Source: an uncultured bacterium
Lineage (GTDB): Bacteria > Fermentibacterota > Fermentibacteria > Fermentibacterales > Fermentibacteraceae
Reading direction: 5' to 3'
Length of the DNA: 64,000 bases
NCBI GenBank assembly: GCA_964569245.1
Contig: CAZMTK010000002.1
Coordinates: forward strand, 25,952 to 89,951
Shown here: positions 53,330 to 56,300 of the stretch, in pieces
Position numbering within the stretch: the stretch's first letter is position 1
Layout of the letters: the number at the start of each line of letters is the position of its first letter
Position numbers and translations under genes: made by a program
The notes under the pieces: model-generated
Told to the model about the DNA's origin: nothing
Databases searched by the model: none
What the model saw: only the letters and a program-made list of their open reading frames with translations

Positions 53330-56300
53330 CTAGATATCCGCTTCATCCTCGTCAATGTCTCCGCTCTCAGGCGGGCCAGGCGGCTCGGTGCCGTCGGGAA
53401 GCTCAAGCCTGACGTCCCTGTACGGCCGCAGGCCGGTGCCCGCGGGAATGAGGTGACCCGCGATCACGTTCTCCTTGAGACCGTTCAGGTTGTCGATCTT
53501 CCCCTCCACTGCCGCATCGGCCAGCACGGTGTTGGTCTCCTGGAAGGAGGCGGCGGAGAGGAAGCTGTCAGTGGCCAGCGAGGCCCTCGTGATGCCGAGC
53601 AGCTGCACGTCGCTGGTGGCCGGGCGGCGTCCTTCTCGCATCATCGCGTCGTTCTCCCGGTTCAGCACCAGCCTGTCTATCTGGGAGCCCTCGAGGAATC
53701 TCGTGTCACCGGGGTCCTCTATGCGGGCCTTCGAGATCATCTGCCTGATGACAATGCCGATGTGCTTGTCGTTGATCTTCACTCCCTGAAGCCTGTAGAC
53801 CTCCTGGATCTCGTTCAGGAGGTACTCCTCCACCGCCTCGGTTCCCTTGATCTTCAGAATGTCGTGCGGGTCGAGAGGACCCTCGGTCAGCTTGTCGCCA
53901 GCTTCGACCCTGTCACCCTCGCGGACCCTGATGTGCCTCGTGGCAGGAATCTTCGCGGTGGCCTCCTGCCCCTGGTCCCCTCGGATCGTGAGCGTGCGTA
54001 TGCCGGCCTTGATGGGGCTCATCGAGACCACGCCGCTGATCTCCGCTATGGCTGCCGCGTCTCCCGGCTTCCTCGCTTCGAACAGTTCGTCCACTCTGGG
54101 GAGGCCGCCGGTGATGTCCCTCTGCTGGGTGAGTTTCTTCTCTATCCTGGCGAGGTGCATTCCCGGCGTCACCCGGCTCGCGTCGTGCACTCTCAGGTGT
54201 GCGCCCGTGGGGATCGCATAGATGCCGATGATCTCTTCGCGCACGAACTCGTCCACCGGATCGGCGGCCTTCTCGCGCTGCTTTCCCCTCGCGGAGCCCA
54301 CAATCCTGGAGGTCCTGTGGCTGAAGCCTGCGAGGACGACCATCCTGCTCTCCTCGACGGCATTCATGAGCCTCTGGAGCAGCTTCCTGGTAGCCTGTGC
54401 GGCTCTGTCGACGCTGCCGAAGGCCAGGATGAAGGGCACCGTCCTCGAAATGCCTGCCAGCAGGTCGACGACTTCGGACTCGAGCTGGTCGTTCCTCTTG
54501 GAGGTGCTCGCGGCCAGGGTCTCCATGGCCTTGCCGAGCCTCTTCCTGTTCTTCTCCAGAAGGTCGAGCTGCTCGGCCTCCTTCCTGGTCTCCTTCGCCT
54601 TCCTCCTCGGCTTCAGCGCTGGATGCCCCGCGAGGGCCTCTACGGCCGCTGCGAAGAGCCCGTACTGGCCCGAGGGAGCCTTTCTGGGGTCGATCCTCAC
54701 GAAGGCCATCTCGAACTCGGAGGAGCGGCCTTCTATCTCATCAAGGATGCTGTCCACCCTGGTCGCGCTCACGTCGGAGTAGGTGAACACCATGCGCCCG
54801 TGCCCGTCCTCCCTGGCCTCGGTCGCGAACTCCGCGAAGCGCCTGATTTCCTCGTCGCGCCTCCTGGGCCTTCCGGAAAGGACCGCGATGTGCCTGGGCA
54901 GAATGTATATGTGGGGATGGAGAGTCTTGCTCCTGTCCTCCACTATGACCATCTGCTTGCGCTGCTCGCTGTCTATCTCCTCCTGGAGGGTGATCTCCTC
55001 CTCGATGTCCACGTAGTGGGCGGTGCCCTCCTGCTCGGCCACGATGGGGATGATGAACGGGTCGCTTCGGCAGATGATCCGATCCTTGTCGAGCTTCTGG
55101 CCGTCCTTGACGTAGAGGATGGAGCCCACGACGATGTCGTAGGTCGACAGGACGTCTCCGGTCTGATCCACGATGTCGATCTGGGCGTTCCTGGTGGCGA
55201 TGTTTATCGTCCTGCCGTTCTCGTCGGTTCCCTTGACCACGTGCATGTTCCTGAACACGATCGTGCCCGCGTGCCTGGCCCTGACCTCGGCCTCCTTCGT
55301 CTCGCGCCCTGCGACACCCCCTGTGTGGAAGGTCCTCAGGGTGAGCTGGGTGCCTGGCTCGCCGATGCTCTGGGCTGCGATCACTCCTACGGCCTCGCCC
55401 ACCGTGACCATCCGGTTCCTGGAGAGGTCCCAGCCGTAGCACTTGGCACAGAGCCCGCGGGGGGCCTCGCATGTCAGCGTGCTGCGGATCCTGACGGCCT
55501 CGATGCCGTGGTCCTCGATCGTCCTCGCGAGCTCGGCCGAGATCTCCTCTCCAGCCTCGCAGATCACCTCGTCGGTCACCGGGTCGAAGACGTCCTCGGC
55601 CGTAACCCTGCCGATTATCCTGTCGCGCAGGGGCTCGATGATCTCCTCGCCCTCCTTGAGGGGCGTTATGAGGCGGCCTCTTATCGTGCCGCAGTCCTCG
55701 AGCGTGATCACCACGTCCTGGCAGACATCGACGAGCCTTCTCGTCAGATAGCCGGCGTCGGCGGTCTTGAGTGCGGTGTCGGCCAGACCCTTGCGGGAGC
55801 CGTGGGTCGAGATCGAGTATTCGATGACCGACAGGCCCTCCTTCAGGGATGAGATGATGGGGGTTTCGATGGTCTCGCCCACCTCGCCCGAGAGGCGCTT
55901 CCGGGGCTTCGCCATGAGCCCCCTCATTCCAGCGAGCTGCTTCACCTGGTCCACGCTGCCGCGTGCGCCGGAGATGGCCATCATGAATATGGGGTTGAAG
56001 CCGTGGTTCTGACGGCTCAGCCCCTCCATCATGGCCTTCTTGACCTCTTCGGTCGCGCTGGCCCACACGTCAATGACCCTGTTGTATCTCTCGGCCTCTG
56101 TCAGCTCGCCCTTCCTGGCGCGCAGCTCGATCTTCTCGATCTCCTTCTTGGCGTCGGCTATGAGCCTGGCCTTCTCCTCCGGGATCACCATGTCCTCCAT
56201 GCCCACCGTGAGGCCGGAGGAGGTGGCGTAGTGGAAGCCGAGGGACTTCAGGTTGTCGAGGAAGACTGCCGTGCTCACCGCACCCAGCTCTTCGAAGCAC

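Follow-up and report, generated by a model that had tools for sequence, protein, structure and literature searches.

The question raised by this locus was what kind of domain is carried within the trigger-loop insert (SI3) of RpoC, the β′ subunit of RNA polymerase (RNAP), in an uncultured bacterium of the family Fermentibacteraceae. The DNA analyzed was a stretch of 64,000 nucleotides (assembly GCA_964569245.1, contig CAZMTK010000002.1, positions 25,952 to 89,951), hereafter called the window, to which all coordinates refer. A preliminary description, made from the sequence alone, had reported an RpoC of 1612 amino acids with an insertion of about 219 codons at 54240..54896 and had interpreted it as a new domain on RNA polymerase. 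The insertion was found again with a difference of a few bases, at 54233..54895 of the minus strand (β′ residues 1092–1312, 221 amino acids), and the length of the subunit was reproduced with a start codon at 58168. Based on Pfam scans, phmmer and hhalign comparisons, and AlphaFold2 (AF2) modeling followed by Foldseek searches, we concluded that the insert is very probably a pseudo-ATPase, derived from the α/β core of a P-loop NTPase of the AAA_16/STAND type. The new domain of the earlier account is thus real and folded, but its identifiable origin, a degenerate AAA_16/STAND core, had been missed there.

Sequence relationship of the insert to AAA_16 proteins

The insert of the window, used as a stand-alone query, matched the Pfam family AAA_16 (PF13191) with 17.5 bits and an E-value of 0.0061, below the gathering threshold of 32.6 bits. 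When 26 diverse members were scanned singly, AAA_16 was the top Pfam family in 22 of them (best E 8.8e-5), and no other family was matched by more than three; the minor matches included NPHP3_N, KAP_NTPase and the ORC2 RecA-like family. A test for AAA_16 homology confined to the window gave 32.4 bits for the open reading frame (ORF) of rpoC alone, and no AAA_16 paralogue was present in the 64 kb. The NCBIfam scan of the insert returned nothing meaningful.

Further, an exhaustive phmmer search of 1.84e9 representative proteins yielded three matches, namely two Fermentibacterota RpoC proteins and a protein of 225 amino acids (P0122; E 3.3e-4), the sole match in that collection that was not an RpoC. 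This protein contains a textbook Walker A motif, GEPGSGKS, and the Walker B motif LLVVLEDVHWAD, and it belongs to AAA_16 with an E-value of 1e-28. The alignment of the insert profile with P0122 by hhalign extended over 160 columns with a probability of 92.3% and an E-value of 5.6e-7. A sequence search of the PDB with the profile of the insert alignment gave matches at chance level only (best E 0.22), so that the link to solved structures was visible at the level of the fold only.

Predicted fold of the insert

AlphaFold modeling followed by a Foldseek comparison, as suggested in the preliminary description, gave an α/β model whose best matches were P-loop NTPases. The AF2 model of the insert, built from a 26-sequence alignment, reached a predicted local distance difference test (pLDDT) value of 90.6 and a predicted template modeling score (pTM) of 0.87. 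It contained seven helices of at least four residues, and its elements followed the order β, helix, β1, loop, helix, β2, helix, two long helices, β3, helix, β4. When this model was compared with the PDB, the top matches were the STAND-like RADAR ATPase RdrA (E 4e-4, template modeling (TM) score 0.5), ORC2, Orc1/Cdc6, MuB, RFC and ABC ATPases, all of them P-loop NTPases; for the first five the probabilities were 0.9–1.0. The insert is therefore predicted to have a three-layer α/β P-loop NTPase fold.

Two observations weaken the case for homology. Every reported AAA_16 score remained below the gathering threshold (17.5 versus 32.6 bits for the window; E 8.8e-5 for the best member), and the TM-scores of the Foldseek matches were moderate (0.4–0.5). 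Homology is therefore claimed from several weak-to-moderate signals that converge, each test being below threshold.

Among known domains, the best sequence family was that of the AAA_16 (PF13191)/STAND domains, such as the N-terminal modules of MalT/LAL- and AfsR-type regulators. The elements of the insert follow the same order as theirs, namely a possible counterpart of the hhGRExE motif, β1 and its loop, β2 carrying a G-x-Y motif, a run of helices, β3 and β4. It differs from them by the loss of Walker A and Walker B, by scores below the Pfam threshold and by a reduction to the α/β core, with no helical lid, winged helix or sensor repeats. Moreover, it is embedded in the domain of another protein rather than placed at the N-terminus of a signaling protein. 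The closest solved folds were ORC2, a degenerate AAA+ scaffold, and the RADAR ATPase RdrA. The AAA+ fold of ORC2 serves as a structural subunit. The insert departs from both of these by an identity of 10–15%, a TM-score of 0.4–0.5 and no indication of ring assembly.

Conserved and lost motifs

The most conserved part of the insert was an arginine-rich motif of 12 residues (54848..54883, minus strand), in which G8, R12, R13 and E16 were invariant and R11 was near-invariant. The other invariant residues of surface type were E139 and the DPV motif. The arginine-rich motif shows an hh-G-R ... E-x-E pattern that is expanded by RRR. On visual inspection, and given its location upstream of the segment equivalent to the P-loop, it resembles the hhGRExE motif that precedes Walker A in STAND proteins. 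The hhalign alignment with P0122 begins just after it. The definition of hhGRExE, and the contact of its backbone with adenine in NB-ARC proteins, have been described (PMC6713354).

At the position of Walker A, a vestigial β1 and P-loop were found (54749..54796, minus strand), from which all glycines have been lost and in which an arginine or lysine was kept at the position of the Walker lysine. The hhalign register placed GEPGSGKS of P0122 opposite SDVSATR(V)D of the insert, and the AF2 model showed at this place a strand (residues 34–39), a loop (40–49) and a helix from residue 50. The consensus x[DE][VT][SN]xx[RK][PT]x[TS] was present at the P-loop-equivalent position in 43 of 43 members, and none of the 43 had a Walker A motif (GxxxxGK[ST]) there. 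The single match to the Walker A expression among these members (P0121) was located elsewhere, in the basic linker.

A vestigial β3 and Walker B region was recognized at 54386..54439 (minus strand). In this region hhalign paired LLVVLEDVHWADAAT of P0122 with a segment of 15 residues, and the ED pair of the Walker B motif of P0122 stood opposite GS of the insert. The acidic pair (hhhhD[DE]) was not conserved among the 43 members, which had GS, GG, AS, ES, DS, TV and others at this position, followed by a conserved LD[RK][AG]HxGT. Having lost the acidic pair of Walker B as well as the glycines of Walker A, the insert would be a pseudo-ATPase. In the Aegiribacteria-type members, K-T was still found at the Walker A position and the first Walker B residue was E; these residues resemble relics of the ancestral motifs.

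These remnants bear on the suggestion that the insert is a working switch or sensor of ATP, GTP or an alarmone, in which a non-canonical pocket would couple the metabolic state to trigger-loop folding. The conserved arginine or lysine at the Walker lysine position, the K-T and E of the Aegiribacteria-type members, and the fact that the best-conserved part resembles an adenine-contacting motif would agree with such a role. The P-loop glycines, however, are gone in every member and the acidic residues of Walker B are not conserved. In addition, degenerate AAA+ subunits such as ORC2, which was among the best structural matches, typically act as scaffolds. A working nucleotide sensor was therefore considered very doubtful.

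The charged helix pointed out in the preliminary description was indeed present at 54521..54595 (minus strand), within a long helix (residues 104–129) between β2 and β3 of the model. It is, however, partly a sub-clade-specific extension that is missing in most members. About 16–26 residues at this place (insert residues ~94–117) were found only in the sub-clade of the window (P0001–P0004), and the other members had an alignment gap of about 23 columns. The insert has therefore gone on accreting sequence.

Insertion site within SI3

The rpoC ORF occupies 53330..58204 of the minus strand and showed no break in translation. An ATG at 58168 preceded by the ribosome-binding site GGAGGAG defines the gene as 53330..58168, which corresponds to 1612 amino acids and a stop codon. 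The product matched the Pfam Rpb1 domains 1–5 and the NCBIfam model TIGR02386 (rpoC) with 1694 bits.

The features named in this section all lie on the minus strand. The insert is bracketed by the two trigger-helix segments. The N-terminal one is TFHTGGVAG (β′ 946–954; 55307..55333), which aligns with the E. coli β′ from residue 934 and with the Bacteroidota β′ from residue 945 onward. The C-terminal one is DITGGLPRV (β′ 1351–1359; 54092..54118), which was invariant in all members. Lying between both trigger-loop motifs, the insert is therefore inside SI3, and its site is within the second sandwich-barrel hybrid motif (SBHM) of that element. The N-terminal part of the host (β′ 955–1091; 54896..55306) comprises the first SBHM and the first strands of the second one, and it ends with LHPHIYILP (β′ 1083–1091; 54896..54922), the N-side flank of the insert. 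On the other side, a flanking peptide of 13 residues (β′ 1313–1325; 54194..54232) opens the C-terminal part of the host (β′ 1313–1350; 54119..54232). This part forms the closing hairpin of the second SBHM, with β-strands in the model, and aligns with residues 1097–1144 of the Bacteroidota protein.

In the solved RNAPs of Bacteroidota (9n9p_D and 8dkc_D) the two flanks are about five residues apart. In the alignment with 9n9p_D, the region up to LHPHIYI corresponded to residues 945–1091 and the region from EIIGIY to residues 1097–1144. The motifs and the alignment to solved RNAPs agreed with the earlier placement of the segment between LHPHIYILP and the second flank inside the trigger-loop insert. 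The flanks had been said to be normally about ten residues apart, and 5–15 residues were found at this position in Bacteroidota, Zixibacteria and E. coli; the Zixibacteria loop has 6–7 residues, for example DKGKKLG. The whole trigger-loop region measured 395–422 amino acids in insert-bearing RpoC proteins versus about 195 in Zixibacteria. The equivalent site in E. coli is a hairpin of 15 residues (β′ 1082–1096) in the C-terminal SBHM (SBHMb); the numbering used for this mapping reproduces the published positions of T1068 and D1073.

A model of SI3 together with the insert (pTM 0.73) had an all-β host, which matched the crystal structures of E. coli SI3 (2auk, 4iqz) and β′ chains over 130–180 columns in Foldseek, so that the insert was what is extra. 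Since the host is SBHM and the insert is not, the latter is a guest inside SI3 from outside the SBHM family. In this model the N-side tether appears tight, with the SBHM strand running almost straight into the first strand of the insert. The C-side tether is predicted to be a basic linker of about 20 residues leading back to the SBHM (54260..54322), modeled with low confidence (pLDDT 58–62 in the insert model, below 50 at residues 353–367 of the SI3 and insert model).

The same data bear on whether the insert could add another SBHM (HABAS) repeat or two to SI3, in the manner of the cyanobacterial Si3. The trigger-loop insertions described before all consist of SBHM repeats (10.1101/2021.01.27.428476), and the nesting of one SBHM in another is known (PMC11515920, PMC10895346). 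The model of the insert was α/β with seven helices, the SI3 match was confined to the flanking host, and the insert alone had no SBHM or RNAP match in Foldseek. The reading as SBHM repeats was rejected as having next to no probability.

The host itself is the one known from E. coli SI3 (β′i6/β′In6; two SBHMs), being the same element at the same position between the trigger helices. The flanking parts align in both sequence and fold, and a comparable movement with trigger-loop folding is expected. Unlike in E. coli, a 221-residue α/β domain takes the place of the 15-residue hairpin (1082–1096), and it is basic, whereas the E. coli SI3 is acidic all over. The cyanobacterial and chloroplast Si3 consists of eight nested SBHMs of about 640 amino acids (PMC13114784, PMC10895346), and its nested additions swing by about 50 Å upon trigger-helix formation and make new contacts, for instance the σ arch (PMC10895346). 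The insert resembles that system in that large domains are nested inside the SBHMs of SI3. It differs in that the cyanobacterial additions are all SBHM/HABAS, whereas the present guest stems from the P-loop NTPases, an unrelated superfamily.

Distribution and constraint

The joints of the insert were well supported. The GC (guanine plus cytosine) content was level across both junctions and the same as in the flanks. Identical contigs over 53900..55300 were obtained from four independent public metagenome runs, with no alternative joint. The exact DNA of 54100..55000 occurred in at least 20 public runs from at least seven studies of anaerobic digesters, biogas fermenters, bioreactors, wastewater and sludge, with one run labeled as soil; these sources fit what is known of where Fermentibacteria (Hyd24-12) live. 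Among the species genomes, the metagenome-assembled genome AS27yjCOA_107 (L001) was closest, with 85% identity in the insert.

A search with the full-length RpoC returned the protein of the window and 41 further clusters of 1583–1620 amino acids and 65–82% identity, of which all named ones were Candidatus Fermentibacteria, Fermentibacteraceae, Aegiribacteria or Sabulitectum. The extra segment was found at the same place in all 42 long proteins. The next matches, mostly from Zixibacteria, had at most 60% identity and 1334–1397 amino acids and did not contain the insert. Further, one genome per GTDB species was scanned for the motif [ST]G[RK][PA]RRR[ED][EQ]E, a scan by which diverged copies of the motif would be missed. 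It yielded 47 species genomes, and all named ones belonged to Fermentibacterota (Fermentibacteria, Aegiribacteria, Sabulitectum or Fermentibacter). The motif was in frame with a downstream GGLPRV in the same ORF in each of the 47, and in 46 of them with an upstream LHPH as well; the sole exception (L043) ends at a contig edge. In Candidatus Sabulitectum silens JCC-6 (L021; MJAN01000002.1, ~1000–2630), rpoC upstream of the insert was split over frames 0, 1 and 0 with no Ns, which probably reflects indel errors of an older assembly and not biology.

The restriction to Fermentibacterota is based on the exhaustive phmmer search and the motif-based genome scan. The word-index protein searches, made with the insert alone and with its profile, missed even the RpoC of the window and were uninformative on absence. 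In the NCBI taxonomy, Candidatus Fermentibacterota is placed within the FCB group. The lineage-specific domain and the phylogenetic signature of the preliminary description were thus both upheld by the 42 RpoC clusters and 47 genomes, with the domain gone from the next relatives and all named carriers in Candidatus Fermentibacterota. The domain would have been gained once, in the stem lineage of this phylum.

The length of the insert stayed within 202–229 amino acids across the whole phylum. By the Nei–Gojobori method, 13 closely related pairs gave ratios of nonsynonymous to synonymous substitution (dN/dS) of 0.03–0.21 for the insert, 0.01–0.15 for the host SBHM and 0–0.05 for the catalytic-core flanks, except for one segment of 60 residues at 0.084. 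The insert evolved 2–5 times faster than the catalytic core and at about the same pace as SI3. Given its low dN/dS, it is a constrained part of the protein, and as a whole it is a phylum-wide domain under strong purifying selection. Two antisense ORFs on the plus strand run over rpoC including the insert (53315..55852, 845 amino acids; 54222..54782, 186 amino acids). Long antisense ORFs are expected in DNA of 64% GC, and with dN/dS being low in the frame of rpoC, these two are unlikely to be genes.

It could be asked whether the insert is a tolerated passenger in a permissive surface hairpin, with no function beyond sparing SI3. SBHM hairpins are hot-spots for nested insertions (PMC11515920, PMC13114784), the insert changes faster than the catalytic core, and the deletion of cyanobacterial Si3 had little catalytic effect (PMC10895346). 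The range of dN/dS, the invariant RRR, E16, E139 and DPV residues and the narrow length range nevertheless point to selection beyond foldability, and the passenger explanation was regarded as improbable.

The insert was also considered as an intein, as a remnant of a homing endonuclease or as some other mobile element. An essential, conserved host gene and a site near active-site machinery are typical for inteins. The insert, however, had no Hint, LAGLIDADG or HNH match in Pfam. Its junctions read R/E/D-H...[DE]-x-I/V and lack a conserved Cys/Ser/Thr at +1, a His-Asn pair at the end and a nucleophile downstream. Its predicted fold is a P-loop NTPase core, its GC content equals that of the flanks, and the insertion site is shared by all species. 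The mobile-element candidate was rejected, its probability being close to nil. The preliminary description had already stated that there was no Cys/Ser start and no His-Asn end, which was borne out by the junction residues.

Possible role in transcription

On balance, the insert probably acts as a non-catalytic, basic structural or regulatory module on SI3, which would tune trigger-loop folding or contact DNA or a factor. The domain would then be a structural or regulatory surface and not an enzyme. Joined to the trigger-helix tips, SI3 has to change place with each round of nucleotide addition, and pausing is tuned by the way it docks to the jaw (10.1101/2021.01.27.428476). An added lobe would therefore be expected to change the docking of SI3. 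In E. coli, SBHMb faces the downstream-DNA channel but makes no contact with DNA, the shortest distance being 16 Å at D1073, and the whole of SI3 is acidic (PMC2939025). Sequence mapping to the E. coli numbering puts the insertion one β-strand downstream of the counterpart of D1073. The insert has a size of about 25 kDa and an isoelectric point (pI) of 9.7, versus a pI of 5.1 for the N-terminal part of the host (β′ 955–1091).

We proposed, as a model, that a basic lobe of about 25 kDa rides on the SBHM facing the downstream-DNA channel. It would alter the site and the firmness of SI3 docking, whether to the jaw, the β lobe, the downstream DNA, σ or a lineage-specific factor. The altered docking would bias the trigger-loop folding equilibrium and, through it, pausing, the elongation rate and/or the stability of the open complex.

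Several points speak against this mechanism. In E. coli terms, a strand of eight residues separates the insertion point from the loop that approaches the DNA. The direction in which the lobe projects from SBHMb, toward the DNA side, is a presumed one, derived from the sequence mapping to E. coli and the data of PMC2939025. Deletion of the much larger cyanobacterial Si3 barely altered catalysis in vitro (PMC10895346), and the catalytic cycle may thus be left unaffected even by a large appendage. A comparison of three Fermentibacterota RpoB proteins with one from Zixibacteria revealed no matching lineage-specific insertion that could be a docking partner. Only 3–7-residue differences from the Zixibacteria protein were seen. 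The three Fermentibacterota proteins had additions of just five and seven residues (TKSVE and LGSGVEK), near residues 237 and 310 of RpoB (window 58170..61973).

A related explanation is that the insert serves as a dock for a partner in trans, for instance a free AAA_16/STAND regulator bound through an AAA–AAA interface, in which case its role would be recruitment and not the tuning of SI3. The invariant R12 and R13 and the near-invariant R11, which could form an arginine finger or bind downstream DNA, and the net basic charge are consistent with this. Many AAA_16 proteins are transcription regulators, and inactive AAA+ subunits often have active partners, for example in ORC and the clamp loaders, both of which were among the Foldseek matches. 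No AAA_16 paralogue was present in the 64-kb window, however, and no partner was identified. The docking explanation also overlaps with the preferred one, a structural or regulatory module on SI3, and was not separable from it here; taken by itself it was considered rather unlikely.

Other features of the locus

The neighborhood of the gene on the minus strand of the window is rplJL-rpoB-rpoC-rpsL-rpsG-fusA. A second, small β′ insertion specific to Fermentibacterota was seen in comparison with Zixibacteria; it comprises 16 residues (β′ 566–581; window 56426..56473). A further six residues, MGNAQI, are present at β′ 601–606 relative to the same proteins. Together with an N-terminal difference of 8–20 residues, these two additions make up the rest of the excess in β′ length over relatives of about 1354 amino acids. 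An Rfam scan of the whole 64 kb found no family at the gathering score, ribosomal-protein leaders near the rplKAJL-rpoBC cluster included.

Relation to described insertions and implications

The lineage-specific insertions of β′ have been described as HABAS (SBHM), BEAN or sLC domains (PMC11515920), and trigger-loop insertions have been stated to consist only of SBHM repeats (10.1101/2021.01.27.428476, PMC11515920). In the BEAN/HABAS paper and its supplements (PMC11515920), Fermentibacteria appear in the phylum legend only, with no supplement entry. A 2026 survey of domain insertions treats rpoC only for the nesting of cyanobacterial SBHMs (PMC13114784). The comparison with catalogued insertions suggested in the preliminary description therefore gave no match in these sources. 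RNA polymerase goes unmentioned in the paper that first described the Hyd24-12 genome, and a literature search on trigger loop, insertion and P-loop NTPase found no prior description of such a domain at this position. The insert belongs to a known class, that of lineage-specific insertions in SI3, but its guest superfamily has not been previously reported there.

For work on the phylum, the motif [ST]G[RK][PA]RRR[ED][EQ]E inside rpoC provides a one-line molecular synapomorphy of Fermentibacterota, and rpoC alignments used for phylogeny need the insert region masked. We give only a slim chance to the idea that the pseudo-ATPase lobe retains a non-canonical pocket for a nucleotide or alarmone, or pairs with a free AAA_16 ATPase through its RRR finger. 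If this were true, the energy or metabolic state would be read directly by a domain mechanically coupled to the trigger loop. RNA polymerase would then contain an allosteric governor of its own, for which the bacteria studied so far offer no counterpart.

The insertions in the large subunits of RNAP have so far come from a small repertoire (SBHM/HABAS, BEAN and sLC), and the Fermentibacterota insert breaks the SBHM-only rule for the trigger loop. It offers a natural experiment on the mass and the type of surface that the swing of the trigger loop and SI3 tolerates, and, as very probably a former P-loop NTPase core, it illustrates how the core transcription machinery has exapted an ATPase fold for use as a structural module.

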